In this document: piece by piece, positions 40 to 43,492 of the stretch
How the letters are laid out: every line of letters begins with the position of its first letter
Position numbering within the stretch: position 1 is the stretch's first letter
IMG/VR virus record: IMGVR_UViG_2534682139_000016
Span: 1-47,073 of that record
Strand: one strand, 5' to 3'
Origin: a virus
Lineage: Duplodnaviria; Heunggongvirae; Uroviricota; Caudoviricetes
Length of the DNA: 47,073 nt
Notes under the pieces: model-generated
The model's input: the letters and a program-made list of their open reading frames with translations, nothing else
Told to the model about the DNA's origin: nothing
Databases searched by the model: none
Translations under genes and position numbers: made by a program

Positions 40-402
40 GGGGCTGATTCTGGATTCGACGGGATTTGCGAAACCCAAGGTGCATGCCGAGGGGCGGTTG
101 GCCTCGTAAAAAGCCGCAAAAAATAGTCGCAAACGACGAAAACTACGCTTTAGCAGCTTAATAACCTGCTTAGAGCCCTCTCTCCCTAGCCTCCGCTCTT
201 AGGACGGGGATCAAGAGAGGTCAAACCCAAAAGAGATCGCGTGGAAGCCCTGCCTGGGGTTGAAGCGTTAAAACTTAATCAGGCTAGTTTGTTAGTGGCG
301 TGTCCGTCCGCAGCTGGCAAGCGAATGTAAAGACTGACTAAGCATGTAGTACCGAGGATGTAGGAATTTCGGACGCGGGTTCAACTCCCGCCAGCTCCAC
401 CA
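40..402 (+). ncRNA. ssrA: tmRNA (SsrA), full length ~363 nt
   Basis: Starts GGGGCTGATTCTGGATTCGACGGG; contains tag-peptide ORF GCAAACGACGAAAACTACGCTTTAGCAGCTTAATAA (ANDENYALAA*) at 131-166; ends with tRNA-like acceptor arm GGTTCAACTCCCGCCAGCTCCACCA. Confidence 0.95.
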
Positions 403-530
403 ATCATGATTGGACGGTGTAAGGACAACACCAACAAAAACAGGAAGTTAGCAGTCTCAGCAGGACACCGACCAGACGGTGAGGAGATAAAAAAGGATAC
501 GCAAAGGAGCCGTGGCTCTCGAGTGACACA

Positions 531-560
531 AAAGCCCGCTTATGCGGGCTTTTTGTTTTT
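531..560 (+). terminator. Rho-independent terminator-like hairpin (AAGCCCGC-TTAT-GCGGGCTT followed by TTTTGTTTTT)
   Basis: GC stem-loop followed by T-run, between ssrA and the first cargo gene. Confidence 0.55.
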
Positions 561-630
561 CCCTTAAGTTCCTAGCCTCTTATCTATAACTATGGAAAAA
601 TGTTAACCCTGACTGTATGTTAACAAAGGG

Positions 631-1845
631 ATGTATATGTCGGTTTTTCATAACTGGCTGCTTGATATCGCAAGCGGGAATTACTTTATCTACATCAAAC
701 GCCTTTCTGCAAACGACACAGGCGCAACAGGTGGCCATCAGGTCGGACTTTATATCCCCTCAAATATCGTTGAAAAGCTTTTTCCATCTATCAATCATAC
801 TCGCGAACTGAACCCTTCAGTCTTCCTTACTGCGCATGTATCATCCCATGATTGCCCTGATACCCAAGCACGCGCAATTTATTACAACAACCGTTATTTT
901 GGTAAGACCCGAAACGAAAAAAGAATTACGCGCTGGGGGAGAGGAAGTCCATTACAGAACCCTGAAAATACAGGAGCCCTCACAATTCTTGCTTTCAGGT
1001 TAAACGAACAGAACACTGACTGTTCCGAGGTAGATATATGGGTCTGCGTCAATCCCGATGAAGAGGATATCATCGAGTCTGCTATTGGCGAAATCATACC
1101 TGGAACCCTAATTTCCGGCCCTGCCGGACAAATTTTGGGCGGATTGTCTCTTCAGCAAACTCCAGTAAATCATAAATATGTTATTCCTGAAGACTGGAAG
1201 AAGCGTTTTCCTTCTGGAAACGAAATTATTCAATATGCTGCTGGCCATTATGCTAAAAACTCCAAGGATCCAGATGAGCAACTGATTGACCGTCGGCGTG
1301 TCGAGTATGATATTTTTCTACTCGTCGAGGAATTACATGTTATTGATATTATTAAGAAAGGATTCGATTCTGTAGATGAGTTTATTGCATTAGCCAACTC
1401 TGTCAGTAATCGACGTAAATCAAGGGCAGGCAAATCACTTGAACTTCACCTAGAGAAGCTTTTTATCGAGCACGGACTACGGCATTTCTCCACTCAGGCA
1501 GTTACTGAAGGTAATAAAAAACCAGATTTCCTGTTTCCTTCAGCAGAGGCATATCATAACGTTGAATTTCCTGTAGAAAACTTACGTATGCTGGCAGTAA
1601 AGACCACCTGCAAAGATCGCTGGCGTCAGATACTGAATGAAGCAGATAAAATCCATCAGGTACATTTATTTACACTGCAAGAAGGTGTTTCTTCAGCACA
1701 ATACCGAGAAATGAAAGATGCGGGTGTCAGACTCGTTGTACCATCAACTTTACATAAAAAATACCCAGAAGCAGTTAGAGAAGAATTAATAACGCTCGGA
1801 GCATTCATTACTGAGCTGATAGAGCTTTACGCTGAACTATCATAG
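631..1845 (+). CDS. ecoRIIR: Type IIE restriction endonuclease, EcoRII-like (CCWGG)
   Basis: 404-aa ORF; N-terminus MSVFHNWLL...YIKRLSANDTGATGGHQVGLYIPS and overall sequence match my recollection of R.EcoRII; AGGGA Shine-Dalgarno 7 nt upstream; convergent with a C5-methyltransferase gene. Confidence 0.85.
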   Translation: MYMSVFHNWLLDIASGNYFIYIKRLSANDTGATGGHQVGLYIPSNIVEKLFPSINHTRELNPSVFLTAHVSSHDCPDTQARAIYYNNRYFGKTRNEKRITRWGRGSPLQNPENTGALTILAFRLNEQNTDCSEVDIWVCVNPDEEDIIESAIGEIIPGTLISGPAGQILGGLSLQQTPVNHKYVIPEDWKKRFPSGNEIIQYAAGHYAKNSKDPDEQLIDRRRVEYDIFLLVEELHVIDIIKKGFDSVDEFIALANSVSNRRKSRAGKSLELHLEKLFIEHGLRHFSTQAVTEGNKKPDFLFPSAEAYHNVEFPVENLRMLAVKTTCKDRWRQILNEADKIHQVHLFTLQEGVSSAQYREMKDAGVRLVVPSTLHKKYPEAVREELITLGAFITELIELYAELS

Positions 1846-1848
1846 GCT

Positions 1849-1871
1849 GACTCCCGGCTTAAAAGGCCGGG
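1849..1871. terminator. Hairpin between convergent R and M genes (CTCCCGGC-N7-GCCGGGAG), possible bidirectional terminator
   Basis: 8-bp perfect GC-rich inverted repeat in the 34-bp gap between the two convergent stop codons; no clear U-tract. Confidence 0.4.
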
Positions 1872-1879
1872 AGATGTTC

Positions 1880-3313
1880 TCAAGGCTGCCCAGTCTTACC
1901 AGCATCAGCAGAAACAGCTTTGAGGATATAGGGTTCCAGAAGTCTGGCAACAGCTTCAAATACTGGCACCACAACTGAGTTACCGAACTGCCGATATGAC
2001 TGAGTATCTGAAACCGGAATACGGAATGGTTTCCCTCCAGGTTTTTCAAATCCCATAAGGCGTGCGCACTCTCGGGGAGTCAGCCTGCGTGGTCGACGAG
2101 CCTGATTACTCTCATTCATAAAGTCAGCCTCTCCCGTTGCCATATCCCAACCACGATCAATAAGAATTTCTGATCCGTCTTTGTGATATCTGGCAGAAAG
2201 TGTGCGTGCAATGCTTTCCTTATTCTCAGGATTGACCAACCCAAAGCCAAAACCATTCCCCTTGGCTGCATGCTTTTTGGCGTAGTTATAAAGGTACTCC
2301 CATAGTTTTGGCGTAAGTATATATTTACTGTCGACTACAGGCTCCAGCAATTCACCAAATGATGGGCGGTGTTCCGGATAAAAACGACTGATATCACGCA
2401 AGGTAAACCCCTTGTGAATATTCAGATCTCGTCTAAATCCGACCAGAACAATGCGTTCACGATGCTGAGGCAAAAAATGCTTCCCATCGATAATCTTTGG
2501 ATCGTTTTTTCCCATTTCTGCAGCATCGGCAACTTCGTAGCCCAGCTCGTCAAGGGTCTCCATAATGACTTTGAAAGTTTTACCCTTATCATGGCTCTTC
2601 AGATTTTTGACATTTTCCAGCACAAAAATTGCCGGTTTTTTTGCTCGTATAATACGTGCCACGTCAAAAAAAAGTGTTCCTTGTGCTTCACATTCAAAAC
2701 CATGCGCACGACCAAGTGAGTTTTTCTTACTAACACCAGCAAGGCTAAATGGCTGGCACGGGAACCCCGCAAGAAGCACATCATGATCCGGCACATGCTC
2801 ATCAATATATGCATAAGCATCCGTTTCCAATACATCGGTTTTATCACTCAGCGTGACTTCCCGAATATCGAGATTGAATTTATGCACCTGTTCATCGTTA
2901 AACCAGTTGGCCTTGTATGTACGCACAGCATCTTTATTCCATTCACTGGTAAAAACACACTGGCCTCCAATGGCCTCAAAACCTTTCCGTATCCCTCCAA
3001 TTCCAGCAAATAAGTCAATGAAGCGGAAAGCATATTCCGGATGGTTTGCAGGTGGTTCTGGTAGCATCTTACGCAGAAGAGACTCTTCTACTGAAGTCAA
3101 CGATTTTGGTAAACACTTGCCATTAATCCAGCGGTTAATGGTTTCACGGCTCCACTCATTTTTTCCGACTTTTCTCAGTAATTCAGCCACATACTTCTGA
3201 TCATAGATTTCCAGCACTTTCTCGATAAGCTTTTTATCATTTTCCTGTCGCAGCTTTTCTTCCGCCTCGGCTTCCTTCAGCAGATGCTGTGCCAACACTT
3301 CAAATTCAGACAT
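1880..3313 (-). CDS. ecoRIIM: DNA (cytosine-5) methyltransferase, M.EcoRII/Dcm-like
   Basis: Motifs [10 protein letters not shown] (AdoMet binding), GFPCQPFS (catalytic PC), ENVKNL; start placed at MSEFEVL (3313) because GGAGG lies 4 nt upstream, giving 477 aa; ORF track extends to 3355. Confidence 0.9.
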
Positions 3314-3674
3314 AATTCCTCCAAGGGGTCTAATGGGTGAAACTTTATCACTCATTCAACCCAGAAGGAAATGTTTTATCTGGATATTTAAACAGTGACT
3401 ACAACGTAATCTAGCACTGGTGATGCTTTGTTAGGCATAGAGAATCATTCTATATACGACTAATGACAGAAAAACAGCAGACAAGTAGTTTGTTCATAAA
3501 TTAACGCATACTATGTGTCTACGGTTTTCGAGACCGGTCCAATCATCAAACGAAACATAAAATTAGCTCACATTATGAGGAAAAGTATCTTTTTTGTACT
3601 ATGTAAATTCAAAGGCTTAGCCTCATTTCTCCGATGGTTTTCTCAACACTACTGGTTGTGAGCCCTTGCAATGA

Positions 3675-4493
<819 letters not shown>

Positions 4494-4550: not shown

Positions 4551-5105
4551 TCATTTATCTCCGACCGAAAACTTCTTATACAGTGTCGATATACCAACAT
4601 CATAGATGATCGCCACCTTCTGGCGAGGAACGCCTGATGCAATTAATCGCCCAGCCTGCGCCCATTGTTCTGGTGTAAGTTTGGGACGACGTCCACCAAT
4701 TCGTCCCTGTGCGCGAGCAGCTTCCAGTCCAGCTTTTGTTCGTTCAACAATCAGTTCTCGTTCCATTTCAGCCAGGGCACCCATCACATGAAAGAAAAAA
4801 CGCCCCATCGGTGTGCTGGTATCAATAGCATCCGTCAGGCTGCGAAAATTAACGCCACGTTCGCGCAACTCCTCAACCAGAATGACCAGATGCCGCATAC
4901 TACGCCCCAGCCGATCCAGCTTCCAGACAACCAGAGTGTCACCTTCCGATAATGTCCTGAGCAGTTTTTTCAGTCCCGGCCTTTCAGACTTTGTACCGCT
5001 TATCTTGTCTTCAAAAATCAGCTCGCATCCTGCACAGTTCAGCGCATTACGCTGTAGATCTGTGTTCTGGTCATTTGTTGACACACGTACATAGCCAATA
5101 AGCAT
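4551..5105 (-). CDS. pin: Serine recombinase, DNA invertase of the Pin/Gin/Hin/Cin family
   Basis: MLIGYVRVSTNDQNTDLQ... catalytic Ser motif; near-identical from memory to e14 Pin; adjacent to tail-fibre genes flanked by inverted crossover sites. Confidence 0.9.
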   Translation of the reverse strand: MLIGYVRVSTNDQNTDLQRNALNCAGCELIFEDKISGTKSERPGLKKLLRTLSEGDTLVVWKLDRLGRSMRHLVILVEELRERGVNFRSLTDAIDTSTPMGRFFFHVMGALAEMERELIVERTKAGLEAARAQGRIGGRRPKLTPEQWAQAGRLIASGVPRQKVAIIYDVGISTLYKKFSVGDK

Positions 5106-5131
5106 GGTAGATCTCCCTGACAAAAGCAGGA

Positions 5132-5533
5132 ATGATGCCATTTGCTCGTTATTTCTGCATTTTCATAAACGTTGGTTTGGGAGAAGCGGCGAAAAGGGAT
5201 GTAGGCACAGGAGAAAATCAGATACCGGATATGTCAGCCTGGAAAAGAAATCCGAGTTCTAATCGCTGGAGAAAATTGCCTGATGGAACCATCATTCAAA
5301 TGGGAATATCAGCATCAGGGCCATTAGGCTCACCTGTAAATATCACCCTGCCGATATCTTTCAGCAATACCAATTATTGTGTTGTTGCATCGTACGATAA
5401 TGCACGGTCAGGTGTGTCAACAATGGTTAGTTTTGCAGCATTACCTGTTTCACCATCGCAATTTTCCCTGATGTCATCTGTGACTGAGCAAGGAATAAAT
5501 CCTTTTGCTTACTGGATTGCTTTTGGAGATTGA
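5132..5533 (+). CDS. Alternative tail-fibre C-terminal variable segment (silent orientation; expressed only after inversion)
   Basis: ORF reads through the left crossover site encoding ...VGLGE, the same junction peptide (NLGLGE) found in the minus-strand tail-fibre gene; ends next to an oppositely oriented tail-fibre assembly gene. Confidence 0.55.
   Translation: MMPFARYFCIFINVGLGEAAKRDVGTGENQIPDMSAWKRNPSSNRWRKLPDGTIIQMGISASGPLGSPVNITLPISFSNTNYCVVASYDNARSGVSTMVSFAALPVSPSQFSLMSSVTEQGINPFAYWIAFGD
5160..5185. repeat. Invertase crossover site (gix/hix-like), left copy
   Basis: TTTTCATAAACGTTGGTTTGGGAGAA; its reverse complement TTCTCCCAAACCAACGTTT matches 19 of 20 nt of the site at 6965-6990; resembles hix/gix consensus TTxxxxAAACCxxGGTTTxxxxAA. 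Confidence 0.8.
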
Positions 5534-5536
5534 TAA

Positions 5537-5956
5537 ATGGACAGATACTTCTATTCACAAAAAGAAAATGGTTTTTTTACCGATTTAAATAAAGCACCTT
5601 CAGATGCTGTTGAGATAACCACGGATGAATGGCTGTCACTACTGGATGGTCAGGATAATGGCATGAAAATAGTCAGCAATCAGGAGGGATATCCGGTTTT
5701 GACAGAGCAACCACCTTTATCAAAAGAAAACCTTATTGCATTGGCAGAGTTGAAAAAAGGAAAACTTATTAATGAAGCCAACGAGCACATGAACAGCAGG
5801 CAATGGCCTGGTAAAGCGGCTATTGGTCGTCTGAAAGGTGAGGAACTGGCGCAATATAATTTGTGGCTGGATTATCTGGACGCACTGGAGCTGGTCGATA
5901 CTTCCAGTGCGCCAGATATTGAATGGCCTACGCCTCCGGCAGTTCAGGCCAGATGA
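5537..5956 (+). CDS. Tail fibre assembly protein (alternative copy inside the invertible segment)
   Basis: 139 aa; C-terminus ...SSAPDIEWPTPPA parallels ...STAPDIIWPELPEA of the convergent copy; typical Tfa/U-like size. Confidence 0.7.
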   Translation: MDRYFYSQKENGFFTDLNKAPSDAVEITTDEWLSLLDGQDNGMKIVSNQEGYPVLTEQPPLSKENLIALAELKKGKLINEANEHMNSRQWPGKAAIGRLKGEELAQYNLWLDYLDALELVDTSSAPDIEWPTPPAVQAR

Positions 5957-6521
5957 TATCCGGCGCGGTGCTGGTATCTGTTACCGTCACCGCGTCAATG
6001 TAATCCAGCACGGCGTTAAGTCGGGTTGTTTCTGCCTGCGTCAGTTTCCGTCCGGCCTGCAATTTCAGTTGAATCAGACTAATGGAAGCCATTACAGTAT
6101 CAATCAGTGACTGACGTTGTGCTTCTGCCGCGTCTACTGCGGCGCTATGCTGTGCCTCGGTATCCGTCACCCATTTCTCACCATCCCATTTATCGTATGG
6201 CGTTAACGGTGAAAGCGTGACATAACCGTCTTTGATGGCACCGATATAATCCACTGTAACAGCTGCGCCATTTTCTGTTGAGTAAACAGTCTCATTGCGA
6301 TGGTCTTCTTCATGGCTCCATCCCTTACCCGTAAATACTGCCACTTTTCCCGGAATGTTTTCGCCAGGGTCAATACCAGTGGAACAGGCGGGCATACTTA
6401 CGCCAGTATTAATATATTCATCAGACCAGCCCGTATACTCAGATGTTTCAGCATCATAATAAAAACAACGCATATCGCCCGGCACTGTAGCCAGCCCATT
6501 TTCATCAAAAACAGGTTTCAT
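5928..6521 (-). CDS. Tail fibre assembly protein (currently expressed orientation)
   Basis: 197 aa immediately downstream of the tail-fibre gene; convergent and overlapping 29 nt with the alternative copy. Confidence 0.75.
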   Translation of the reverse strand: MKPVFDENGLATVPGDMRCFYYDAETSEYTGWSDEYINTGVSMPACSTGIDPGENIPGKVAVFTGKGWSHEEDHRNETVYSTENGAAVTVDYIGAIKDGYVTLSPLTPYDKWDGEKWVTDTEAQHSAAVDAAEAQRQSLIDTVMASISLIQLKLQAGRKLTQAETTRLNAVLDYIDAVTVTDTSTAPDIIWPELPEA

Positions 6522-7267
6522 TATTTAGCCCTCACCAGAAAGTTAAATGCAATATTTCGCGGTCTGACAGCAACAAAATTCACACCATCACCCACAGAGT
6601 TACTGGTGAAATTAAATCGTGAAAATCCTGGCTGATTTCCGGCGATGCCATCATGAAAGTTAATTGCGTGTCCCGCACCTTCGCCTATATTCCCGGCAAA
6701 CTGAGAAAAGTTTGTAGCTGCCTGCCAGCTTAATAATTCACGACCACCATCTGCACCTCGCCCGTCATCCCAGATACGAATGAAATCACCGCGGGCTTCA
6801 GGTAATACCAGCGAAGGAAACACTTTCGCCAGCACAGGATAATCAGTGGCAGAGAATTTCGCGCCGTTGAACTTCAAAAACACCATACTGGACCAGCTGT
6901 CGATTACAGTATTTGGCATTGCAGCGGACGGCCAGAAGAACGGAACGCCAATAGCTGGAGAACCTTCTCCCAAACCAAGGTTTTCGAGAGCCGTTTTCAC
7001 CGTGCCATCCGATTTGATATCACCAAACGGATTCTTGCGGCTTAACAGCAGCGCACGAAGCGCGGTAAGCAGCTGGTCGTGCCGCCCCTTCTCCAGGCTG
7101 GCACCGGACGCCTCCACAACGCTGCAAAGCTCCTCCTGCAACATGTCAAAGTAGTCATCATCCAGATCGGTGGCAGGCGTGCCGGTCTGGGGGTTACCAC
7201 GGGTAAAACCGTTCTTACCCGCGCCGAACTTATCCTTCTGCGCGGTTTTCGTGTCTATACGATGCAT
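6521..7267 (-). CDS. Tail fibre protein (constant N-terminal part 6978-7267 fused to variable part 6521-6977)
   Basis: [21 protein letters not shown]... N-terminus typical of Mu S-like fibres; the right crossover site lies inside the gene at the constant/variable junction. Confidence 0.75.
6965..6990. repeat. Invertase crossover site (gix/hix-like), right copy
   Basis: TTCTCCCAAACCAAGGTTTTCGAGAG, inverted relative to 5160-5185. Confidence 0.8.
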
Positions 7268-7270
7268 GGA

Positions 7271-7855
7271 TTACTCCGGATATTTAAAAATTACGTAGGT
7301 ATGCGACGGGCAGAGTTTGTTAAGCACACACTCGACAACGGTGTCGCCCCAGATACGCAGTGCGGAATCACAGGGATCGCCACATGTCATCCAGGTGGTG
7401 TTGGTGGCGGCTGGCATGTTGACCTGCCAGTAATACCGCCATTCAGGCGCGTTCACAGCGTCAGTACAGGCCGATGAGCAGGTGAACGTGCTTTTGTCGT
7501 ATCGCGTGATGGTGGCATCTGGTCTGCCCAAGGCAGCAAGCTGTGCAAGATAAAAATCCTCGTTGATGCCACCCGACAGGTTAACCTTCGCATCCAGCCG
7601 TTGCTGACGCTGGCGAAGGGTCTGTGTCCCTGCGGGAATACATTCATCCGGCAGACCGCACAGACGCTCCCAGCGGTTTATCAGTTCAGTGGTAGTGCGC
7701 GGATCCAGCTCCCGCATCAGGGCATCCGCACGCTGATGAACGCGGGTTAATGACGGTGCCGCACCGGCAATCGCCGGATCGCTGGCTGACCACGCCGGAC
7801 CGGGGGGCAACAGTGCCGACAACAGACGGATGTAATCATCGTTTGTCACGTCCAT
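7271..7855 (-). CDS. Baseplate/tail protein, Mu gp48-like
   Basis: 194 aa, position between baseplate J-like gene and tail fibre; [22 protein letters not shown]... Confidence 0.55.
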
Positions 7856-8904
7856 GAAATCGTCCCCAGTACCGCCAGTTCATTTTTTGCAATGGAGATA
7901 TTGTCTGCCGGTGCAAGCAACTGATGGCTGTATTCCCCGTTCGCACCGGAAATCGCTTCACTGATACGTGACACCTTCAGTTCTCCCTGCGGATAACCAT
8001 CACGCAGCAGGAACGAACGCAACTCGGCGGTGATGGCAGCCCGTATTTCCGGTGTGTCCGGCGTCACGCGGATATGAAAATCCACTTTATGCGCCACCGG
8101 CCTGAATACATACAAATCAGAGCCTGCCACCGGGGCCAGTGGCCCGATATGTTGTCTTGCCGCCGTTTCCGTTGATTCTTCCGGAATGGGATTAATCAGG
8201 TCACTGCTGGCAATCATCACACCGACAGTTCCCGTTCCCATCCAGTGACGGTATGTCCATGCGCGGGTAATGCCGGGCACTTCTTTAGCCCAGACGACAT
8301 AGTCCCCGTCAGCCCCGCCCTGCGGCGTCCAGTAATACCGCTCAATGACGCGGGCGCGCCACGTTTCCAGATCTTCAGTATCGAATCCTCCAGTCAGGGT
8401 ATCTGCAACACCGGAAGACGGCAGACCATTCACCGGCGTGACCAGGATTAATGCCGTACCGTCGTCAGCGTTACCGACCGCGCCTGTAGTTGAGCAAGTG
8501 ATCGGCACACGCAGGACACCACCGGAGCTGGTTGCATCGGCAGTTGCCGTGTACTGAACCAGGTCATCGCGCTGAATAACACTCCCGGCAGTCACCTTCA
8601 GGCCATCGCTGACACCTTCCCAGCGCATATACCCGCTGGCAGCCGTGGCCCCCTTGCGCGGACACCGTTTCATCGCAGCATGTCGCGCCAGCCAGGACTC
8701 ATCGCACAGGTCAGGCAGCATATTCATTGCCAGATAATCGATGTACCCGTAAACCGTATGCAGCGCCGCCGCATACACCTTTGCCCGCACGTCTTCATCC
8801 ATGCGCCGGAGCGTGTCGCTGACGTCCAGCCTGGCAAATAAATCGTTACGGAGCATACTGATATTTTCTGCCAGCGTCGGGCGCTGAAATTCACTGTCCG
8901 CCAT
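7846..8904 (-). CDS. Baseplate J-like protein (Mu gp47-like)
   Basis: 352 aa; order and size in a Mu/P2-type baseplate block. Confidence 0.7.
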
Positions 8905-30761: not shown

Positions 30762-30762
30762 C

Positions 30763-34374: not shown

Positions 34375-34383
34375 GACCGACCT

Positions 34384-34722: not shown

Positions 34723-35384
34723 GCGTTAGTTTCTCCACAGTCACGACACGCCACGGCGCCCGGAGCTGCACACTCGCGGGCGTCATTACTTTCTGAAATG
34801 CAAAAGATTTTGTAGACCAGTGCTGCATGCTCCTGCAGCTTCGAAATTGAGAGATACAGCTCGTCGTTAATTGCTGTCTTCTCATGCGGTTCCACCACAC
34901 CGTCTTCGATTGCCGAACGAATCTGTCTGGAATAACTGCCAATCTGTTCAATGACTTCCAGCAGGCGCTGGTTAATATCGGCGTTGTCCACATCCTCGAC
35001 GTCAGGAAGAGACACAAAGACGCCATTTGCAGACTGCGCCACAGCGTCAGCAATGAAGTGAGTTCCACCAGCACGTTGCAAAATCATTGCCCATCCCAGC
35101 GGGAAAATCTGATCGCCATCGGCACGAAGGCGGTTAAATAATGCGTTTTCTGTTACATCCAGCCAGTCAGCTGCTTCAGCGTAACCACCCGGCAACGCTG
35201 CGATAGTTTTTCTGACAGCTTTCACGTACCACTCAGGCTGTTTTTCTACTTTCCAGTGATGCTTACCCACGGTTAGCCTCATCGTTCTGTGGTTTCTGTT
35301 AATCGATTTATCCATTAGATTTTTCATAAAGCTCAGGTTTAAATGGCAACCGTCCGCAAGTTCTATATGCAGCTTCTGCTGCAC
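34719..35384 (-). CDS. CII-like phage regulatory protein (start uncertain)
   Basis: 221-aa ORF overlaps the Cro-like gene by 77 nt, so the real start is probably internal. Confidence 0.5.
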
Positions 35385-35508
35385 GTCCTTTTGGAATTAA
35401 CTGGCCCGGACGGTTTCGCCACTGATAAACGGCTTCAGTTGTTATGCCGAAAAAAGCAGCAACTTTCTCAATACTGCCGAAGTAGCTTTCGATATCGTCA
35501 GTTGTCAT
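35308..35508 (-). CDS. Cro-like HTH repressor
   Basis: 66 aa; HTH IEKVAAFFGITTEAVYQWRN; divergent from the CI-like gene. Confidence 0.6.
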   Translation of the reverse strand: MTTDDIESYFGSIEKVAAFFGITTEAVYQWRNRPGQLIPKGRAAEAAYRTCGRLPFKPELYEKSNG

Positions 35509-35605
35509 ACGCCCTCCAAACTAAGTTTTATTAGATGCTAATTACAAATCTATCTTTGGTCAATAAAAACTAAGATTACTTAGCAATTCAAGAAATGGTG
35601 CTCCT
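35509..35605. promoter_or_regulatory. Immunity-region divergent promoter/operator interval
   Basis: 97-bp AT-rich gap between divergent cro-like and cI-like genes with repeated CTAAG/CTTAG motifs. Confidence 0.5.
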
Positions 35606-36232
35606 ATGGAAACGGTTGGTCAGCGTATAAAAGCTCTGAGAAGAGTTACCGGAACGTCCCAGAAAGAATTGGGTAAATTTTGTGGAGTAAGCGACGTTGC
35701 TGTGGGGTACTGGGAGAAAGACATCAATACCCCTGGTGGGGAGGCACTTTCGAAATTAGCGAAGTTCTTCAATACGTCAATAGATTACATTCTTTATGGT
35801 GCTGAGTTTGAAGGCAAACTCGTCACAAACATGCGCAGAGTTCCTGTAATATCGTGGGTTCAGGCTGGGCAGTTTACTGAGTGCAGGGCAGCAGAAGTGT
35901 TTAGTGAAGTGGACAAGTGGGTAGATACATCATTAAAGATTGGTGATAACTCATTTGCATTAGAGGTTAAAGGTGACTCCATGACTAACCCTAATGGCCT
36001 CCCAACAATACCAGAAGGCGCAACAGTGATTGTAGATCCAGATGCAGAACCTCGTCATGGAAAAATAGTCATCGCTCGACTTGATGGAACAAACGAAGCT
36101 ACAGTAAAAAAATTAGTCATCGATGGCCCTCAAAAGTTTTTAGTGCCATTAAATCCTCGGTATCCCAACATCCCTATCAATGGTAATTGCCTTATCATTG
36201 GTGTAGTCAAAGGAGTTCAATACGAACTCTAA
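35606..36232 (+). CDS. CI-type repressor (HTH_XRE + S24 LexA-like peptidase domain)
   Basis: N-terminal HTH (QKELGKFCGVSDVAVGYWE), C-terminal GDSM...KIVIARLDG...KKL autocleavage motifs. Confidence 0.85.
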   Translation: METVGQRIKALRRVTGTSQKELGKFCGVSDVAVGYWEKDINTPGGEALSKLAKFFNTSIDYILYGAEFEGKLVTNMRRVPVISWVQAGQFTECRAAEVFSEVDKWVDTSLKIGDNSFALEVKGDSMTNPNGLPTIPEGATVIVDPDAEPRHGKIVIARLDGTNEATVKKLVIDGPQKFLVPLNPRYPNIPINGNCLIIGVVKGVQYEL

Positions 36233-36438
36233 GACCTCTCTTCTCTAACTAAGGCACCGAACTAAGAAAAGTTTGGTGTTTTCTCTTGCCATAATAACTA
36301 AGTTAAGTTAGATTTTATATCAAAGATAACGAACAGGCAGGACGCCCACGAAGTAGCCGCCTGGGGCATATGAAGTCCAGGATGATTCGTTGAGTCATGT
36401 TGTGCCATCAGGCACTCATGTTAAAGCAGGTGTATGAA

Positions 36439-36714
36439 ATGAAAGTCCAGATTTTAAACAATAACTGTGAAGTCGTTTGGTCATACGACATAGCCGCCCC
36501 TGTAGATCAGAGCGGCGATAGCTGGACCAATGGGAAACATCAGATTATGGCTGGAGTTGTGTTCTCTTTACGCCGTGCTTTGGAACAGGCTGAAGTATTT
36601 CCATCAGACCCTGAATGGAAATGGCCTTTTTCTATTTGTCCAAATTCGGAGAGCACATTTCAGAAAATTGGTCAGAAAGTCGCACTCGAAGAGCATCAGC
36701 CAACTGTTTCCTGA
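36439..36714 (+). CDS. Small hypothetical protein downstream of cI
   Basis: ORF from MKVQILNN..., weak. Confidence 0.3.
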   Translation: MKVQILNNNCEVVWSYDIAAPVDQSGDSWTNGKHQIMAGVVFSLRRALEQAEVFPSDPEWKWPFSICPNSESTFQKIGQKVALEEHQPTVS

Positions 36715-36877
36715 TTTTTTCAGGTAACTCGTCGGCATCGCAGAAACAACAACGCTCGATCATGTTGAAAGCCGATTCGTAGAACCGTTTCTGCTGAGTG
36801 TCGCTGAGACAGGAAAAGAGTGACGTTACGATGATTTTATTAATTGCATTATCAAGTTCTTTTTCATCAAAAGTCAT
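36632..36877 (-). CDS. Small hypothetical protein
   Basis: 81 aa, Cys-rich (CCFCD). Confidence 0.3.
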   Translation of the reverse strand: MTFDEKELDNAINKIIVTSLFSCLSDTQQKRFYESAFNMIERCCFCDADELPEKIRKQLADALRVRLSDQFSEMCSPNLDK

Positions 36878-37177
36878 TTGATTTTCCTTTTATGTATACG
36901 GGCTTAAAAGGATACCACCGAGCCTGAAGTGGTGAAAAGACAGGCACATAACAGCTAAGTATTTTCAACCAAAGAGAATCCTTAGCGTTGTGGTGAATGC
37001 GGCTCAGCGCACGCGGGTTAAGGTTGAGGCTGACAGTCGACCTTCTGTGGATACCCACCCGTCTGGTGTGCAACCTTCGCCAGGCACCGGGAGGCACCCG
37101 GCACCACAACTTTATGCTGTGTGTAGTCCTGGCGGTACCAGTTTGTACCCTTGCTTCCGGCTGGTAGCGTCCTTTTT

Positions 37178-37266
37178 ACAAAACAGAGAAGAGCATCACC
37201 GGACGACGGGCTCATAACCCAATCCATCCGGGCGGCTGCCACCGCAGGTGTTCTTCTCTGTTTTGT
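37178..37266 (+). other. Long imperfect hairpin in GC-rich non-coding leader (candidate structured RNA/regulatory element)
   Basis: ACAAAACAGAGAAGAGCATCACC (37178-37200) pairs with GGTGTTCTTCTCTGTTTTGT (37247-37266), about 19 bp, 46-nt loop. Confidence 0.35.
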
Positions 37267-37314
37267 GGAGAAACTAATCGGCCTTGCAGGGTCGATATGA
37301 TGAGGAGCAGCAAA

Positions 37315-37677
37315 ATGGCTAGCGAACGCAGTACTGATGTGCAGGCATTTATCGGGGAGCTGGACGGCGGCGTATTTGAAACCAAAATCGGCGCAGTTCT
37401 CAGTGAAGTCGCTTCCGGTGTGATGAACACGAAAACCAAAGGTAAGGTCTCACTCAACCTGGAAATCGAACCATTTGATGAGAACCGTGTGAAAATCAAA
37501 CACAAACTCTCATATGTTCGCCCGACTAACCGCGGGAAAATTTCTGAAGAAGACACCACCGAAACGCCGATGTATGTCAATCGCGGTGGTCGCCTGACTA
37601 TTCTGCAGGAAGACCAGGGACAATTACTGACTCTTGCCGGTGAACCTGACGGAAAACTCCGCGCAGCAGGTCATTAA
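37315..37677 (+). CDS. YfdP-like prophage protein
   Basis: Start placed at MASERS (AGGAG 8 nt upstream); first gene of a yfdPQRST-like block. Confidence 0.5.
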   Translation: MASERSTDVQAFIGELDGGVFETKIGAVLSEVASGVMNTKTKGKVSLNLEIEPFDENRVKIKHKLSYVRPTNRGKISEEDTTETPMYVNRGGRLTILQEDQGQLLTLAGEPDGKLRAAGH

Positions 37678-37741
37678 TATCGTTTTTAATTAACTGATTA
37701 TTTATCTCATCACTGAATATTTTATATAGTGAGGACTTATT

Positions 37742-38566
37742 ATGTCTCAGAACTTAGACGCAACCGCAATTAATCAAATCCATGCCCTTATTTCTGCTCA
37801 GGGTGTTAATGAAATTATCAGTAAGATTGGTGCCGACGCAGTGGCATTACCTGAAAATTTCCGCATTCATGATCTGGAAAAATTTAATTTAAATCGCTTC
37901 CGTTTCCGTGGTGCGCTTTCCACTGCCAGCATCGATGACTTTACCCGTTATTCTAAAGATCTTGCAGATGAAGGCACCCGCTGCTTTATCGATGCTGATA
38001 ATATGCGTGCCGTCAGTGTGCTTAACCTGGGTACTATTGATGAACCAGGTCACGCAGATAACACCGCCACTCTCAAACTGAAAAAGGCAGCGCCGTTCTC
38101 TGCTCTGTTGTCTGTTAATGGCGAGCGTAACTCCCAGAAGTCACTGGCAGAATGGATTGAAGACTGGGCCGACTACCTTGTGGGCTTTGATGCTAATGGT
38201 GACACCATTCAGGCAACAAAAGCGGCTGCGGCGGTCCGTAAAATCACGATTGAAGCAAACCAGACTGCTGATTTTGAAGATAATGACTTCAGCGGCAAAC
38301 GCTCCCTGATGGAGTCTGTCGAAGCGAAGACCAAAGACATTATGCCAGTGGCATTTGAGTTTAAATGCGTTCCGTTTGAAGGTCTGAAAGAACGTCCGTT
38401 TAAATTACGCCTCAGCATTATCACTGGCGATCGTCCGGTACTGGTTCTACGCATTATTCAGCTGGAAGCGGTGCAGGAAGATATGGCTAACGAATTTCGT
38501 GATCTGCTTGTTGAGAAATTCAAGGACAGCAAAGTAGAAACCTTTATTGGGACTTTCACCGCCTGA
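37742..38566 (+). CDS. YfdQ-like (DUF2303) prophage protein
   Basis: 274 aa; synteny with HD-domain gene; resemblance from memory. Confidence 0.55.
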
Positions 38567-38694
38567 TTTCATTACCGCAAATGCCCCTGCGGGGGCATTT
38601 ATGGAAACGTAATTGACTCAATAATCGCCTGAAGGCGAGGGTTTTCTTTAACCAAAATTCAGCGCGGTGCAGCGCATATAACGTGGAGAACAAA

Positions 38695-39231
38695 ATGTCA
38701 TTTATTAAAACTTTTTCCGGGAAGCATTTTTATTATGACAGGATAAATAAAGACAACATCGATATTAACGATATCGCGGTTTCCCTTTCAAATATCTGTC
38801 GCTTTGCCGGCCATCTTTCACACTTCTACAGCGTCGCCCAACATGCGGTGCTTTGCAGCCAGCTGGTACCGCAGGAATTTGCTTTTGAAGCGTTAATGCA
38901 TGATGCAACAGAAGCGTATTGCCAGGACATCCCCGCACCACTGAAACGCCTTCTTCCTGACTATAAACGGATGGAAGAAAAAATAGACGCCGTAATCCGT
39001 GAGAAATACGGGTTACCCCCGGTTATGAGCACGCCTGTGAAATATGCCGATCTCATCATGCTGGCAACCGAACGCCGCGATCTCGGGCTTGATGATGGCT
39101 CTTTCTGGCCTGTACTGGAAGGCATCCCGGCAACAGAGATGTTCAACGTGATTCCACTGGCACCGGGCCATGCCTACGGGATGTTTATGGAACGTTTTAA
39201 CGAGTTATCGGAGTTACGCAAATGCGCATGA
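38695..39231 (+). CDS. HD-domain phosphohydrolase, YfdR-like 5'-deoxynucleotidase
   Basis: HD motif region ...HLSHFYSVAQHAVL...ALMHDATEAYCQDIP; GGAGA 5 nt upstream of ATG at 38695. Confidence 0.7.
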   Translation: MSFIKTFSGKHFYYDRINKDNIDINDIAVSLSNICRFAGHLSHFYSVAQHAVLCSQLVPQEFAFEALMHDATEAYCQDIPAPLKRLLPDYKRMEEKIDAVIREKYGLPPVMSTPVKYADLIMLATERRDLGLDDGSFWPVLEGIPATEMFNVIPLAPGHAYGMFMERFNELSELRKCA

Positions 39232-39584
39232 ATGTTTTCGAAATGGAAGGGTTTCTTCGTGGGAGATGTGTACCGCGAGATCTGAAAGTGAACGAAACAA
39301 ATGCTGAGTACCTGGTACGTAAATTCGACGCGCTTGAAGCTAAATGTGCGGCACTGGAAAGCAAAATAATACCAGTGTCAGCTGAACTGCCTCCAGCAAA
39401 TGAAAGTGTTCTGTTATTTGATGCTAACGGAGAAGGCTGGCTGATTGGCTGGCGTTCTCTCTGGTACACCTGGGGACAAAAAGAAACCGGAGAATGGCAG
39501 TGGACATTTCAGGTCGGGGACCTTGAAAACGTCAATATCACTCACTGGGCAGTAATGCCGAAAGCACCAGAGACTAAGAAATGA
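39222..39584 (+). CDS. YfdS-like prophage protein
   Basis: 120 aa, overlapping start with upstream gene. Confidence 0.45.
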   Translation: MRMNVFEMEGFLRGRCVPRDLKVNETNAEYLVRKFDALEAKCAALESKIIPVSAELPPANESVLLFDANGEGWLIGWRSLWYTWGQKETGEWQWTFQVGDLENVNITHWAVMPKAPETKK

Positions 39585-39843: not shown

Positions 39844-40062
39844 GTGGAGAAACATATGCTGAACCTCGATTGTGTTCCTATCTCAACTTATTGCAAAGAA
39901 ACTGGCGAAACTCCTGAAGCAATAAACAAACGTGTACAGCGCGGTGTTTGGCGTGAAGGTGTTCAGGTTTTAAAGGTTGAAGGCGTTAAGGAGAGGTGGA
40001 TTGATCTTAGTGAGGTTGCAAAATGGGCCAGACAAAACTGCTCAAACTACCGCGCGGCGTAA
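39844..40062 (+). CDS. Excisionase-like protein
   Basis: 72 aa immediately upstream of and overlapping int. Confidence 0.55.
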   Translation: MEKHMLNLDCVPISTYCKETGETPEAINKRVQRGVWREGVQVLKVEGVKERWIDLSEVAKWARQNCSNYRAA

Positions 40063-41198
40063 CAATCAGGAAACACCGCCAGGGCGAAACGATCAATATA
40101 ACTTTCACCTACAAAGGAGTTAGATGTCGTGAGCCGCTTTCCAATCTGGAAGTAACACCAAAGAACATTAAATACGCCGAGCGTACACTCGGCGAAATCC
40201 ATAATAAGATCGAAAGGGGAACATTCATTTATGCAGAATATTTTCCCCGTTCTGCTCGTTTGAAAATTTTTGGTAATGCTGCTGCAGGCAAAACGGTAAA
40301 GATGTACCTGGACGAATATCTTGAAATCTGCGAAACAAGAAAACTTTCACCCTCTACGATTGGTGGCTATAAAAAATGCCGTAGTGCGTTAGCCTCACTT
40401 CACATTTGCCCTGCAAGTGAATTAACACCAGCAACCCTGAAAGCGTGGATTCAAAGCCAGAAAACAACCTTAAAAACCATTCGCAACCAGTTATCTTTCC
40501 TGCGGTCAGCACTTGATGAAGCCGTGACCGATGGGGTACTTCAAATTAACCCCGTATCGTTAGTAACAGCTTCGCGCTACCAAAGTGATAAGTCAGAAGC
40601 AGAAAGCAGCTATGTGGTTGATCCGCTATCACCAGCAGAAGTTGATGCATTACTAGCAGCAGCCGGAAACAAACAATGGGAAAATCTGTTCCGGTTCGCT
40701 ATACATACAGGCCTGCGTAGTTCTGAACTATGTGCCCTTCGATGGCGTGATATCGACTTTGTTGGAAAAACAGCACATGTCCAGAGCGCAAGTGTTGTTG
40801 GTGTTATCAAAGGGACCAAAACAAAAGCCGGTACTCGTAAAGTTGAACTGACAGAAGAGGCAATGTTGGCGCTGATAAATCAGAAGCCATTTACGTTCAT
40901 GAAAGATGCTACGGTCTTTGAAGATCCAAAGACCAATAAGCCTTGGGCAAGTGCTGATGCAATCAGGAAAAAAGCATGGGTGCCAACATTGCGAAAAGCA
41001 GGTATTCGCTACAGAAACCCATATCAGACCAGGCACACTTATGCTACTAAGTACATTAGCCAAGGAGCTAATCTCTTCTGGCTAGCAGGGCAGATGGGGC
41101 ATAAGGGGCCCGAAATGTTGTTTCGTCATTATGGGCGTTACTTGAGTGATTATGACAACCACAGCTCAACAACGCTCACAAGTAATTGCAAAAAGTAG
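40023..41198 (+). CDS. Tyrosine-type phage integrase
   Basis: 391 aa; C-terminal catalytic region with ...RHTYAT...; HxxR/Y-region GQMGHKGPEMLFRHYGRY. Confidence 0.85.
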   Translation: MGQTKLLKLPRGVTIRKHRQGETINITFTYKGVRCREPLSNLEVTPKNIKYAERTLGEIHNKIERGTFIYAEYFPRSARLKIFGNAAAGKTVKMYLDEYLEICETRKLSPSTIGGYKKCRSALASLHICPASELTPATLKAWIQSQKTTLKTIRNQLSFLRSALDEAVTDGVLQINPVSLVTASRYQSDKSEAESSYVVDPLSPAEVDALLAAAGNKQWENLFRFAIHTGLRSSELCALRWRDIDFVGKTAHVQSASVVGVIKGTKTKAGTRKVELTEEAMLALINQKPFTFMKDATVFEDPKTNKPWASADAIRKKAWVPTLRKAGIRYRNPYQTRHTYATKYISQGANLFWLAGQMGHKGPEMLFRHYGRYLSDYDNHSSTTLTSNCKK

Positions 41199-41448
41199 CC
41201 TTGAGCAAGGTAAAGCATGTTATTCAAAGAAGCCTATTTCGTTCAAAACGAGAGGTCCTCCACAAATCCACGCTTGAATAGGTATTCTTTACAATTATGA
41301 GCATACCCCTTATAGATTTATTCCATTGAAAAATGCCATCCCCCTGATAAAACAACAGTATTATTGTTTCAAAAAAAATGTTATAAGTAAATTCACTTAC
41401 ATGTAACATTTAAATTTTTGTTTAAGAAGTATAAATTAGAGGGATAAA

Positions 41449-42300
41449 ATGACTACACCAGTAATAAGTTTCATAAATATGAAAGGTGGGGTTGGTAAAA
41501 CAACTTTATGCGTCGGCATTGCTGAATATCTTGCAAACTTCATGGATAAAAAGGTATTAATTATCGATATTGACCCACAATTTAACGCTACACAGTCAAT
41601 ACTTAGTAAATATGATCGAGTGAAAGAGTATATAGCTGATCACTTAGAAAATACAAAAACCATCAGACGAATATTCGAGACAAAATCAAGCTTAACGGGT
41701 AAAGTTCAGCAGGTCACTCCTGATGAAATTATCATCAAGATGTCAGAGCACTTAGATATGATTTTTGGTGATATTAATACAATATTTGATATTGAACAAC
41801 CTGCGGCAAGATTACATAAGCTAAAACGCTTTATAGAAGAACATAAGCTTCGAGATATATATGACTTCATTTTGATCGATAGCCCACCAACCATTTCATT
41901 ATTTACTGATGCAGCTCTCGTTGCTTCAGATTATTATATTGTGCCAGTTAAAATTGACCACTACTCAATTTTAGGTGCGACAAGTCTTTTAAGCGTAATA
42001 GAAAACATTCAAGATAATTATGACCATAAAAACATTCAAAACCTTGGTTTTATTTATACTAATACCCTAGAAAATCTATCAAAAAAGACAAAAAAGCTAA
42101 AGACAGACTTTGAAAGTACTGAACCTTTTAATGAACTATACTTTTTTGATAACCAGTTGAAGTTTGTACAGGATTTGATGGTGGGTGGTAGAGGTAATAT
42201 ATCATCAAGTTATAAATCATCCAGAAAATATATCAAAGCGATTTGTGAAGAGTTTTTAAGTCGGATCCAAGAAGTGCAAACGGGGGGGGAAGATGAATAA
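41449..42300 (+). CDS. ParA/MinD-superfamily ATPase (cargo gene A)
   Basis: Deviant Walker A MKGGVGKTT at residues 11-19; Walker B-like LIDSPP; AT-rich; GAGGG RBS. Confidence 0.8.
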   Translation: MTTPVISFINMKGGVGKTTLCVGIAEYLANFMDKKVLIIDIDPQFNATQSILSKYDRVKEYIADHLENTKTIRRIFETKSSLTGKVQQVTPDEIIIKMSEHLDMIFGDINTIFDIEQPAARLHKLKRFIEEHKLRDIYDFILIDSPPTISLFTDAALVASDYYIVPVKIDHYSILGATSLLSVIENIQDNYDHKNIQNLGFIYTNTLENLSKKTKKLKTDFESTEPFNELYFFDNQLKFVQDLMVGGRGNISSSYKSSRKYIKAICEEFLSRIQEVQTGGEDE

Positions 42301-42706
42301 AAATAGTAACAACCTCGAATTATTACAGACATTGGTTTATAAGAAGCCCTCGTCAAAAGAAGCGTTTATTGGTTTGATAACAATAGCAATCTATTCTAGG
42401 GAAATTTTTGTTAAAAATGAAGATGCAGCAGAATTCGTAAAAAATGTATTTGGATTAAGTTTCTTAGACTACGTCATCAAGTCAAGAACTTTATTATGCG
42501 CTAGACTTACCCGTAATCTTGTAAATATGAGCGAGAGAGACATTAAAGAATGCATATATAAAGCATCAGAGTATTTTAAAACTGACAAATTTATTATTGG
42601 ATATAATGAAAACTCACTTACTTTTAAAAAAAGTAACGTCAAACGTAATGCAAATCGAGATGTAGGTACGTGGATTAATGCTCTTTTGAAGAAGGATAGA
42701 AAATAA
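42293..42706 (+). CDS. Hypothetical protein (cargo gene B)
   Basis: 137 aa; start overlaps the ParA-like gene by 8 nt. Confidence 0.6.
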   Translation: MNKNSNNLELLQTLVYKKPSSKEAFIGLITIAIYSREIFVKNEDAAEFVKNVFGLSFLDYVIKSRTLLCARLTRNLVNMSERDIKECIYKASEYFKTDKFIIGYNENSLTFKKSNVKRNANRDVGTWINALLKKDRK

Positions 42707-43371
42707 TGCTTCAAAGAGACCCACATGGATTTAGAAAAGACGTGAAAGAATTTATCACAATGATAAAATCATTTCAGGTCGATATTCGCACCGAAAACAA
42801 TCTTACATCGGCTTATAAACATGTACTTTTTCTGGAGTTTATCCATAACTCACATCCAGAAATAAGTCACAAAACCTTTATAAAAAGTATTATTTATGAT
42901 GTTTTAAGTTCAATTACAGCGATACTTCATAAACGAGAGCGATATCTTCATCTTAATTTTCGCTCAATGATTGAACATCTTGCACGTATATCCTTACAAA
43001 AAGTTGATAACGGGGGGGATTTCGATATTACAATTAGAACTCTTGATTTCGAGAATCTTAAATCTACCAACACTGATGAAAACTGGGCGTACATGCATTC
43101 ACAGTATAAACAAGCATGTGGCTGGTTACACTCATCATCTAAAGTTAAATTAAATATCACAGCATCATTTCCAGATTTATTAAAGTCTGATTCAAAAAGT
43201 AATGCAGCTAAACTGTCAACCCATTTGCAAAAGATGACTACCGAAATGTTAAAGATTTTTTTTAACTACTATGTTGATGAGATTCAAACTTCTTTTTACC
43301 GCACACGGGGAGAAATGAGGTATGTGCTTGGCAACCATAACTTCGAATATTTTTTAAGCAAGAATCCATAA
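42706..43371 (+). CDS. Hypothetical protein with possible HEPN-like Rx4H motif (cargo gene C)
   Basis: 221 aa; TAATG overlap with gene B; motif RSMIEH. Confidence 0.6.
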   Translation: MLQRDPHGFRKDVKEFITMIKSFQVDIRTENNLTSAYKHVLFLEFIHNSHPEISHKTFIKSIIYDVLSSITAILHKRERYLHLNFRSMIEHLARISLQKVDNGGDFDITIRTLDFENLKSTNTDENWAYMHSQYKQACGWLHSSSKVKLNITASFPDLLKSDSKSNAAKLSTHLQKMTTEMLKIFFNYYVDEIQTSFYRTRGEMRYVLGNHNFEYFLSKNP

Positions 43372-43461
43372 ATATATATTTCCTTAAAAAGGATACGTGA
43401 AGTACACGAAGCATGCGAGAAATAAAATAAAACAATAAAAATCAATAAATTAAAAACAAAT

Positions 43462-43492
43462 GGACGCTGGTTCAACTCCCGCCAGCTCCACC
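43462..43492 (+). repeat. Direct repeat of ssrA 3' end (att site)
   Basis: GGACGCTGGTTCAACTCCCGCCAGCTCCACCA matches 372-402 with one mismatch. Confidence 0.85.

Follow-up and report, generated by a model that had tools for sequence, protein, structure and literature searches.

The locus examined here raises the question of how a near-copy of the end of ssrA, the transfer-messenger RNA (tmRNA) gene, came to lie more than 43 kb downstream of that gene and ahead of a second integrase-bearing element. The window (the whole stretch of DNA that was analyzed, 47,073 nucleotides (nt), IMG/VR record IMGVR_UViG_2534682139_000016) matched, at 100% identity, complete genomes from O103:H2 and related strains of STEC (Escherichia coli that produces Shiga toxin), such as FWSEC0007 (NZ_CP031908.1). 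Upstream lies the usual smpB-ssrA neighborhood, and downstream the chromosome restarts at a truncated ygaQ-like pseudogene followed by glaH-lhgO-gabDTP. A first-pass annotation of the sequence had described tandem islands at ssrA, with a prophage later inserted between the gene and a P4-type integrase island. We consider it very likely that two integrative elements lie in series here, at the ssrA locus of an O103:H2-type E. coli, and that an SfV-like prophage integrated ahead of an older island.

The ssrA gene and its repeated 3' end

The following features define the gene and the two copies of its end.
40-402, plus strand: ssrA (tmRNA), full length (ARAGORN; Rfam RF00023; RefSeq annotation of the identical locus)
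371-402, plus strand: attL core, 32 nt, consisting of T-stem, T-loop, acceptor 3' strand and CCA of the tmRNA
43462-43493, plus strand: attR core, the displaced ssrA 3' fragment and also the left end of the older island

The tag peptide predicted by ARAGORN was ANDENYALAA, and the Rfam model was matched over positions 1-374 of 374 with 295.8 bits. Through a repeat finder and pattern searches, the final 32 nt of ssrA, GGACGCGGGTTCAACTCCCGCCAGCTCCACCA, were found to recur at 43462-43493 as GGACGCTGGTTCAACTCCCGCCAGCTCCACCA, on the same strand as the gene. The two copies are identical at 31 of 32 positions, with the sole mismatch at G377 versus T43468. The first-pass annotation had paired 372-402 with 43462-43492 as a repeat of about 31 nt with one G-to-T difference; the repeat and its mismatch are real, but the pairing was one base out of register and the true length is 32 nt. 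No third copy was found in the window at up to three mismatches, and none of 100 dinucleotide-preserving shuffles contained any match to the repeat at that threshold. Islander recognizes integration by this signature: an intact target gene, here ssrA, at one end of the element and, at the opposite end, a directly oriented fragment displaced from the 3' part of that gene.

Prophage-free junctions and the origin of the mismatch

We joined window positions 1-402 in silico to 43494-44500 as an empty-site query and searched this join in 5426 complete E. coli genomes. In 944 of the 5426 it was recovered in one piece, matching without interruption at 99.9-100% identity; among these are E. coli W, SE11 and strain 12009, which is of the same serotype (O103:H2). 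The annotated order in strain 12009 is smpB, ssrA, integrase and the island genes, and the strain differs from the synthetic join by one base, inside the integrase gene. An empty-site allele with boundaries exactly at the repeat, as used by Islander, is thus present among these genomes, and the comparison with prophage-free ssrA loci that the first-pass annotation had proposed came out in its favor. The exact prophage-island (attR) junction of the window was encountered in 9 of the same 5426 genomes.

The sequences that flank the two cores on the prophage side are the arms of the phage attachment site.
403-563, plus strand: phage P' arm (LLS attP match; strongly conserved in 11 related attP-like junctions)
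43372-43461, plus strand: phage P arm

We aligned attL and attR of the window with attP of phage LLS and attB of strain 12009. In this four-way alignment the phage P' arm follows the attL core on its right, and to the right of the attR core the sequence is identical to that found beside attB. This junction pattern is the one expected of reciprocal attP x attB recombination. Across the core and P' arm (181 nt), the window was 90.6% identical to the attP region of LLS.

The single mismatch marks the side that came from the phage. T43468 falls within the left portion of the attR core, where an attP-derived base is expected if strand exchange took place to its right. The same P arm with the same T was found in strain MB06234 ahead of a CP4-57-type flank and a different P4-type integrase, and in IMG/VR locus L122 ahead of another P4-type integrase (49% identical). 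The T variant is therefore phage-borne, being linked to the phage P arm whatever island lies downstream. By this reasoning, T43468 would be phage-derived and the rest of the attR core host-derived, while the last roughly 25 nt of ssrA at 40-402 would have become phage-derived upon integration.

Sister phages with integrases that are 65-97% identical carry the left-edge variants GGGCGCGGG, AACGCGGG, GACACGGG and GATGCGGG along with less similar ones. All of the sister variants have GGTTCAACTCCCGCCAGCTCCACCA in common, and the 25 nt at 378-402 are perfectly shared with attR and with every sister attP examined. Because the left-edge variants differ while these 25 bp are shared by all, the crossover can be placed within 378-402. 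This block takes in the final two bases of the T-stem, then the T-loop (TTCAACT) and the 3' strand of the T-stem, and lastly the acceptor strand with CCA. A 7-bp overlap would probably lie at or near the 7-nt T-loop, by analogy with the general scheme for T-loop-targeting integrases that Williams is said to have set out and on which this placement is based.

Strain MB06234 was also noted for its decay, which has touched both its ssrA fragment and its prophage. Its displaced fragment carries a second difference, CAGCCCACCA instead of CAGCTCCACCA (locus L005, positions 9960-9995), and its prophage is internally deleted, with a tail-fiber gene fused to yfdP (positions 1709-4178 of the same locus).

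The 43 kb prophage

The interval 403-43461 is apparently a complete SfV/SfII-like prophage, judging from its gene content and nucleotide similarity. Its principal modules are as follows.
4551-26728, minus strand: late region (97-98% nt identity to Sf phages; RefSeq annotation; Resolvase Pfam match)
4551-6521: pinE-type serine invertase with a putatively invertible tail-fiber tip segment (Resolvase Pfam)
29392-39584, both strands: lambdoid early/regulatory region (RefSeq annotation; 95-97% nt identity to SfIV/SfV-type and related phages)
34002-34076: 15-nt iterons (repeat finder)
35308-35508, minus strand: cro-like gene
35606-36232, plus strand: LexA/S24-type repressor

The first-pass annotation had taken the 43 kb interval for a prophage, and the Sf-type modules, together with an xis and int of its own, agree with that reading. 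Positions 6956-24594 showed 97-98% nt identity to phages vB_EcoM-689R6, SfII, SfI, SfIV and SfV; when the window was divided, SfI, SfII and vB_EcoM-689R6 covered 69-71% of positions 1-25000 at 97-98% identity, and about 38-45% of positions 25001-47073 was covered at 95-97% identity, the early region resembling the same group and other lambdoid phages. Virion and early modules are thus shared with the SfV-like temperate phages, which combine a Mu-like tail with lambdoid control. The late region is ordered from the pinE-type serine invertase and tail-fiber tips through baseplate, tape measure, sheath and tube, and head-tail connector to the HK97-type capsid and protease, portal, terminase, HNH gene and lysis cassette (holin, 26402-26728). 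The early region contains a Q antiterminator, RusA, a Dam-type methylase, replication genes and an early-left operon (yfdP/Q/R-like). In the RefSeq annotation of the identical sequence, all prophage modules are intact except for one small frameshifted open reading frame (ORF). This early-left ORF, at about 36990-37300, is the only visibly damaged prophage gene.

Two further observations concern these modules. At 4551-6521, the invertase adjoins two oppositely oriented sets of tail-fiber tip and assembly genes, an arrangement that suggests an invertible host-range switch as in Mu, P1 and LLS. Within the replication-initiator gene at 33433-34374 (minus strand) there are at least four tandem 15-nt repeats (CAGATTTTGACGGGT-like), which look like the iterons of lambda O/ori-type origins.

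The integration module and attachment-site arms

The recombination genes of the prophage and the candidate integrase-binding sites in its arms were located at both ends of the interval.
39856-41198, plus strand: xis and int recombination module (phrog_2917; Pfam)
39856-40062, plus strand: excisionase (Xis; phrog_2917, 7.7e-44)
40023-41198, plus strand: tyrosine integrase (Int), 391 amino acids (aa), start overlapped by xis (Arm-DNA-bind_2, Phage_int_SAM_5 and Phage_integrase; Pfam)
492-501 and 503-512: tandem candidate arm-type Int sites in the P' arm, AAAGGATACG and AAAGGAGCCG
530-553, followed by a T run: stem of the phage-supplied intrinsic terminator (terminator scan)
43388-43397 and 43399-43408: tandem candidate arm-type sites in the P arm, AAAGGATACG and GAAGTACACG

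The element thereby has its own tyrosine integrase inside the interval, with the excisionase ahead of it, which is another Islander criterion. Both genes sit at the end of the interval distal to ssrA and were missed by the first-pass annotation. The prophage Int was 85% identical in aa sequence to the Int of phage LLS. Its likeness to the island integrase was weak (25% identity over 128 aa), and the two belong to different tyrosine-recombinase lineages. From the module comparison, the prophage appears to be a mosaic in which SfV-type virion and control modules are joined to an LLS-type, ssrA-specific integration module. An ORF at 631-1845 had been suspected to be the integrase of the element from its position directly after ssrA; this candidate was ruled out, as Pfam identified it as an EcoRII-type restriction enzyme.

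Exact copies of AAAGGATACG occur only twice in the window, once in each arm, and each is followed 11 nt later by a half-site (GAAGTACACG in P, AAAGGAGCCG in P'). The result is a pair of AAAGGAnnCG-like tandem motifs at 43388-43408 and at 492-512. The P' pair is kept in the 11 related junctions, and in the P arms of sister attP and attR sites comparable pairs occur at 60-85 nt upstream of the core. These paired motifs are plausible candidates for the arm-type sites bound by the Arm-DNA-bind_2 domain of Int. A 34-nt direct repeat termed D7 (490-523 and 43386-43419, 71% identical) was also considered here and discarded as no real long repeat, with only its AAAAAGGATACG part and the adjacent half-site being meaningful. 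The phage terminator in the P' arm is predicted to be the one that now ends ssrA transcription.

The exact predicted attP was absent from the INPHARED phages, where the matches to a 1.6 kb synthetic attP came only by way of the P' arm (in LLS and Ayreon) or of the core (in phiNP), and an exact 51-nt junction pattern had no match in IMG/VR. Among the IMG/VR stretches with core and P' arm, 68 of 112 had sequence other than ssrA upstream, forming an attP-like junction, and several of these 68 carried an Int homologue 87-97% identical just upstream. This family of attP sites is therefore abundant, though the exact attP was not found. The intact int, xis, S24-type repressor and structural genes suggest that excision of the prophage via Int and Xis may still be possible.

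A different junction was observed in E. coli NT1W22 (locus L008, positions 19940-20040), in which the left end of a related prophage lies at the ssrA core but is preceded by a foreign arm (...GCATACGACGTGTCTGCG), not by ssrA. The island in front of that prophage carries an ABC-three-component system together with HigA, remnants of Trb, and IS1. The same arm (...GCATACGACGTGTCTGCG) recurs in several IMG/VR contigs. The NT1W22 junction suggests that arrays may also be assembled in another order, or that hybrid attP sites occur.

The downstream P4-type island

To the right of attR, the window holds the beginning of the second element and the insertion sequence (IS) that interrupts it.
43494-43658, plus strand: island left arm with its own terminator (stem 43543-43557, then a T run; terminator scan; identical to strain 12009)
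43659-44888, plus strand: P4-type tyrosine integrase, 409 aa from the annotated start (MAKIAKK...; Pfam, NCBIfam, RefSeq)
44927-45343, plus strand: hypothetical 138-aa protein
about 45416-45805, minus strand: C-terminal fragment of a Response_reg_2 gene cut by the IS
45806-47073, plus strand: IS3-family (IS629-like) element, extending to the window end, left boundary approximate (RefSeq; Rfam; Stx phage record)
45860-46186 and 46186-47073, plus strand: IS ORFs
46141-46257: ALIL frameshift pseudoknot in the IS (Rfam RF01497, 120.3 bits)

The left arm at 43494-43658 has an identical counterpart in strain 12009, where it comes right behind ssrA, and in the prophage-free strains the island terminator directly follows ssrA. 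Each element thus appears, from the predicted stems, to bring its own terminator for ssrA. The first-pass annotation had put the second repeat copy about 166 bp upstream of a P4-type integrase. This spacing is correct for the annotated start at 43659, which aligns with residue 1 of IntA of CP4-57; the longest ORF starts at 43617. Arm-DNA-bind_3 (DUF4102), Phage_int_M and Phage_integrase all scored above the Pfam cut-offs, giving the P4-type domain architecture, and NCBIfam PRK09692 was matched with 437.5 bits (cut-off 434). The island integrase was 48% identical to IntA. In an alignment read by eye, VRPGEA and HGMRSIA aligned with TRPAEA and HGLRSIA of IntA, and ALAH and AYNR were conserved, so that the catalytic-region motifs appear to be preserved relative to IntA.

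In strain 12009 the island consists of four genes, encoding the integrase, the 138-aa hypothetical protein, a 582-aa Response_reg_2 protein and a 572-aa HEF_HK/HATPase_c protein; past it, the chromosome restarts at a ygaQ-like pseudogene without its N-terminus. The island is about 5.5 kb in size. The matching Shiga toxin (Stx) phage record annotates IS629 OrfB, and the IS element has no counterpart in strain 12009. No distal ssrA fragment was detected in the 10-12 kb beyond the island with 23-nt and 16-nt patterns at up to three mismatches, and a blastn-short search of the last 62 nt of ssrA against the 10-12 kb downstream returned only noise (E values of at least 0.88). Because no ssrA fragment was found beyond it, the island is probably an immobile, degenerate remnant. 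As a consequence, the tandem islands of the first-pass annotation stand only as two integrase-bearing elements in series: the prophage has both an integrase and an ssrA fragment, while the island has an integrase but no distal fragment, so that the strict Islander definition of a tandem array does not apply.

It was noted that the HEF_HK/HATPase_c and Response_reg_2 genes of the island (locus L004, positions 11324-14792) form a putative conflict or signaling pair; the Response_reg_2 gene is intact in strain 12009. A length difference was also observed somewhere within 45344-45859, by which the window is one base longer than FWSEC0007 and several otherwise identical genomes (7574 versus 7573 aligned bases), and strain WL1467 has the same length as the window.

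Order of events and alternative explanations

The sequence of events that we favor can be set out as follows. The lineage would first have carried the small degenerate island right after ssrA, with its P4-type integrase, small ORF and HEF_HK/Response_reg_2 pair. An SfV-like temperate phage, with an HK97-type head, a Mu-like contractile tail and control genes of the lambdoid kind, would have arrived second, its Int (40023-41198) recombining attP with the 3' end of ssrA. In this scheme the T-arm and acceptor 3' end of the tmRNA are mimicked in attP over 25-32 bp, and strand exchange would have occurred within the stretch of 25 bp (378-402) that all partners have in common. The resulting attL would consist of the sequence of ssrA itself up to the crossover, followed by a phage-supplied 3' end and terminator. 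At attR, the original ssrA 3' end, behind the phage P arm and the G-to-T variant, would have been moved 43,091 bp downstream, and the old island would have remained joined to its right. Excision would give an attP with GGACGCTGG... and a restored attB with GGACGCGGG...

Directly observed are the repeat and the two integrases, the existence of an allele with an empty site, the derivation of both arms from the phage, and the association of the T variant with the phage arm. That the island came first and the prophage second is a reading by parsimony, favored because the island-only state was found in 944 genomes and the combined state in 9, because the island has no distal att site, and because the prophage arm precedes at least four different resident islands. 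Of the first-pass proposal that the prophage was inserted later than the island, the insertion and its boundaries are accordingly well supported, while the later arrival is the most parsimonious order and not a demonstrated one.

Several points weigh against this reconstruction. Strain 12009 could be a precise excisant instead of the ancestral state, although it would then still confirm the boundaries and the mechanism. The integration of an island into a pre-existing prophage attR would yield the same final structure. The past integration of the island at ssrA is deduced only from its position, orientation and P4-type integrase, with no distal ssrA fragment beside it. The crossover is bounded to 25 bp, and its exact position within them is a matter of deduction. 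Finally, neither an excised circle nor a sequenced phage with the exact attP was found in the phage and viral-contig collections.

Of the alternatives, the one that survives best is that the whole array was gained en bloc by homologous recombination, through transduction or conjugation, from another lysogen. We regard this as a minority possibility with some real weight. Identical junctions occur in strains not labeled O103, such as a Vulpes vulpes isolate and RM13322, and sister O103:H2 strains have a different cargo cassette in the slot between int and attR; both facts show recombinational exchange in the region. Such a transfer, however, would alter only where the integration took place, since the junctions are still exactly those of an Int-mediated attP x attB event.

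The reverse order, in which the prophage was there before the P4-type island and the ssrA fragment at its attR later took up that island, would leave a structure in the window indistinguishable from that of an island followed by a prophage, and the displaced fragment keeps the 25-bp block that other ssrA-targeting elements use. We nevertheless judge this order improbable. The 944 genomes in which the island lies directly on an intact ssrA are from diverse strains, against the 9 with the prophage-island junction, and an island that lacks a distal att copy looks immobile. The presence of the prophage arm against at least four different islands fits a mobile phage landing ahead of a resident.

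Even less credit is given to the idea of a single composite element, made up of prophage and island and moved by either integrase. The two adjoin one another and both integrase genes are intact, but the island is found alone in the 944 genomes, the prophage is found with other downstream islands, and no ssrA fragment that could act as an outer att site was detected on the far side of the island. A chance repeat in 43 kb of ordinary chromosome, or the unrelated conserved motif that the first-pass annotation had named as grounds for abandoning its proposal, can be set aside as having a negligible probability, given that none of the shuffles produced a match and that the interval is a prophage missing at exactly these boundaries in the 944 genomes.

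Defense and other accessory genes

The accessory genes of the prophage were found in three places: between attL and the tail-fiber invertase, between the Q and holin genes, and between int and attR.
631-1845, plus strand: EcoRII-type restriction endonuclease (Pfam EcoRII-N, EcoRII-C; PADLOC REase_II, 4.4e-234)
1880-3355, minus strand: C5 cytosine methyltransferase (Pfam DNA_methylase)
3720-4493, plus strand: PD-T4-3 GIY-YIG protein (Pfam LEM-3_GIY-YIG; PADLOC PD-T4-3, 4.7e-140)
27020-29412, plus strand: DS1_1 and DS1_2 anti-phage pair, a two-gene moron between Q and holin (NCBIfam; GC (guanine plus cytosine) content 34-36%)
41449-43371, plus strand: cassette of three genes in the int-attR slot (GC 31-35%)
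41449-42300, plus strand: ParA-like ATPase (Pfam AAA_31, CbiA)
42293-42706 and 42706-43371, plus strand: two proteins of unknown function

Based on these family assignments, the stretch 631-4493 between attL and the invertase appears to be a defense-cargo slot. Both genes of the DS-1 pair matched NCBIfam equivalogs, NF053868 with 451 bits (cut-off 330) and NF053869 with 375 bits (cut-off 315), and the first of them belongs to Pfam NA37, a nucleoid-associated family.

The cassette in the int-attR slot had PHROG matches to phrog_164, phrog_6264 and phrog_7540, and PADLOC gave no convincing match across 41449-43371. The proteins encoded at 42293-42706 and 42706-43371 matched no Pfam, NCBIfam or PADLOC family. 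For the 221-aa cassette protein, no relatives were found in representative genomes, while five were found in the viral contigs of IMG/VR, all in the order xis, int, cassette, attR. The same slot in sister prophages holds DarTG, an AAA ATPase with RloB, a Dam-type methylase with an AAA ATPase, or nothing. We tentatively raise the possibility, which we hold to be more doubtful than probable, that the int-attR slot is an exchangeable defense-cargo slot and that the ParA cassette is an undescribed anti-phage or anti-plasmid system.

Defense cargo flanks the attachment site on both sides, with the EcoRII restriction-modification genes, PD-T4-3 and, as a candidate, the uncharacterized ParA cassette near attP and the DS-1 pair further inside. 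In STEC lineages, such cargo bears on resistance to phages.

Comparison with known systems

Traffic of prophages, and of islands with a P4-type integrase, at ssrA is already documented as a hotspot phenomenon, and "traffic at the tmRNA gene" was reportedly described as a phenomenon by Williams in 2003. The present locus, which is annotated in several public O103:H2 STEC genomes, therefore carries little weight as a discovery, serial occupation of ssrA being documented. Its value is illustrative: attL, attR and attB can be set beside a related attP, the crossover is bounded to 25 bp, a single mismatch marks the phage-derived side, and two unrelated tyrosine integrases use the same tmRNA 3' end. 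Among integration targets, Islander reports the strongest enrichment for the tmRNA gene. In E. coli and Salmonella, according to Bobay and colleagues, nearly every prophage genus is represented at the tmRNA site, along with islands, and the diversity there is extreme (PMC3603311). In enterohemorrhagic E. coli, ssrA is a known site for Stx phages.

The locus resembles the tandem arrays defined by Islander in having an intact target gene (tDNA), an element with an integrase, a displaced 3' fragment in direct orientation and a second integrase-bearing element. It differs from them in that each member of such an array needs both its own integrase and its own tDNA fragment, and here the second element lacks the fragment.

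The first-pass annotation had likened the arrangement to CP4-57 of E. coli K-12 (intA = slpA). The likeness holds for the P4-type integrase right after ssrA, with the same orientation and domain architecture. It does not extend to membership in CP4-57, given the 48% identity to IntA and the absence from the island of yfjH, which follows intA in K-12. CP4-57 is about 22 kb long (NC_000913) against the about 5.5 kb of the island, the island cargo (HEF_HK/Response_reg_2) is unrelated, and no distal att repeat was found for the window island.

The closest relative of the integration module is that of phage LLS (PQ299149). Int is 391 aa long in both, at the identity reported above, xis overlaps the start of int, and the layout of int, cargo gene, attP core, cargo, serine invertase and tail fibers is the same. 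The P' arms are likewise similar, and the core in each is the ssrA 3' end. The two phages differ in their virion and early modules, LLS having matched the synthetic attP only over core and P' arm, in the cargo on both sides of attP, and in the left-edge variant, which is GGGCGCGGG in LLS and GGACGCTGG in the window prophage. In the LLS paper (Genome Res 2025), Int was reported to be 99.7% identical to the Int of a prophage integrated in ssrA, and attP was deduced from a 29-bp match to the ssrA 3' end; integration of LLS at ssrA was deduced by its authors, not demonstrated (PMC12315714). The same paper noted that IntA of CP4-57 uses the same gene and is only 17% identical to LLS Int (PMC12315714).

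The Shigella phages SfV, SfII, SfI and SfIV share with the window prophage a late region at 97-98% nt identity, an early region at about 95% and the same overall architecture. Their integration modules, in contrast, have no match to the window at 39.6-43.5 kb. The Sf serotype-converting phages integrate at thrW, with gtr O-antigen modification genes next to attP and int. The module in the window targets ssrA instead, and the corresponding slot holds the ParA-like three-gene cassette.

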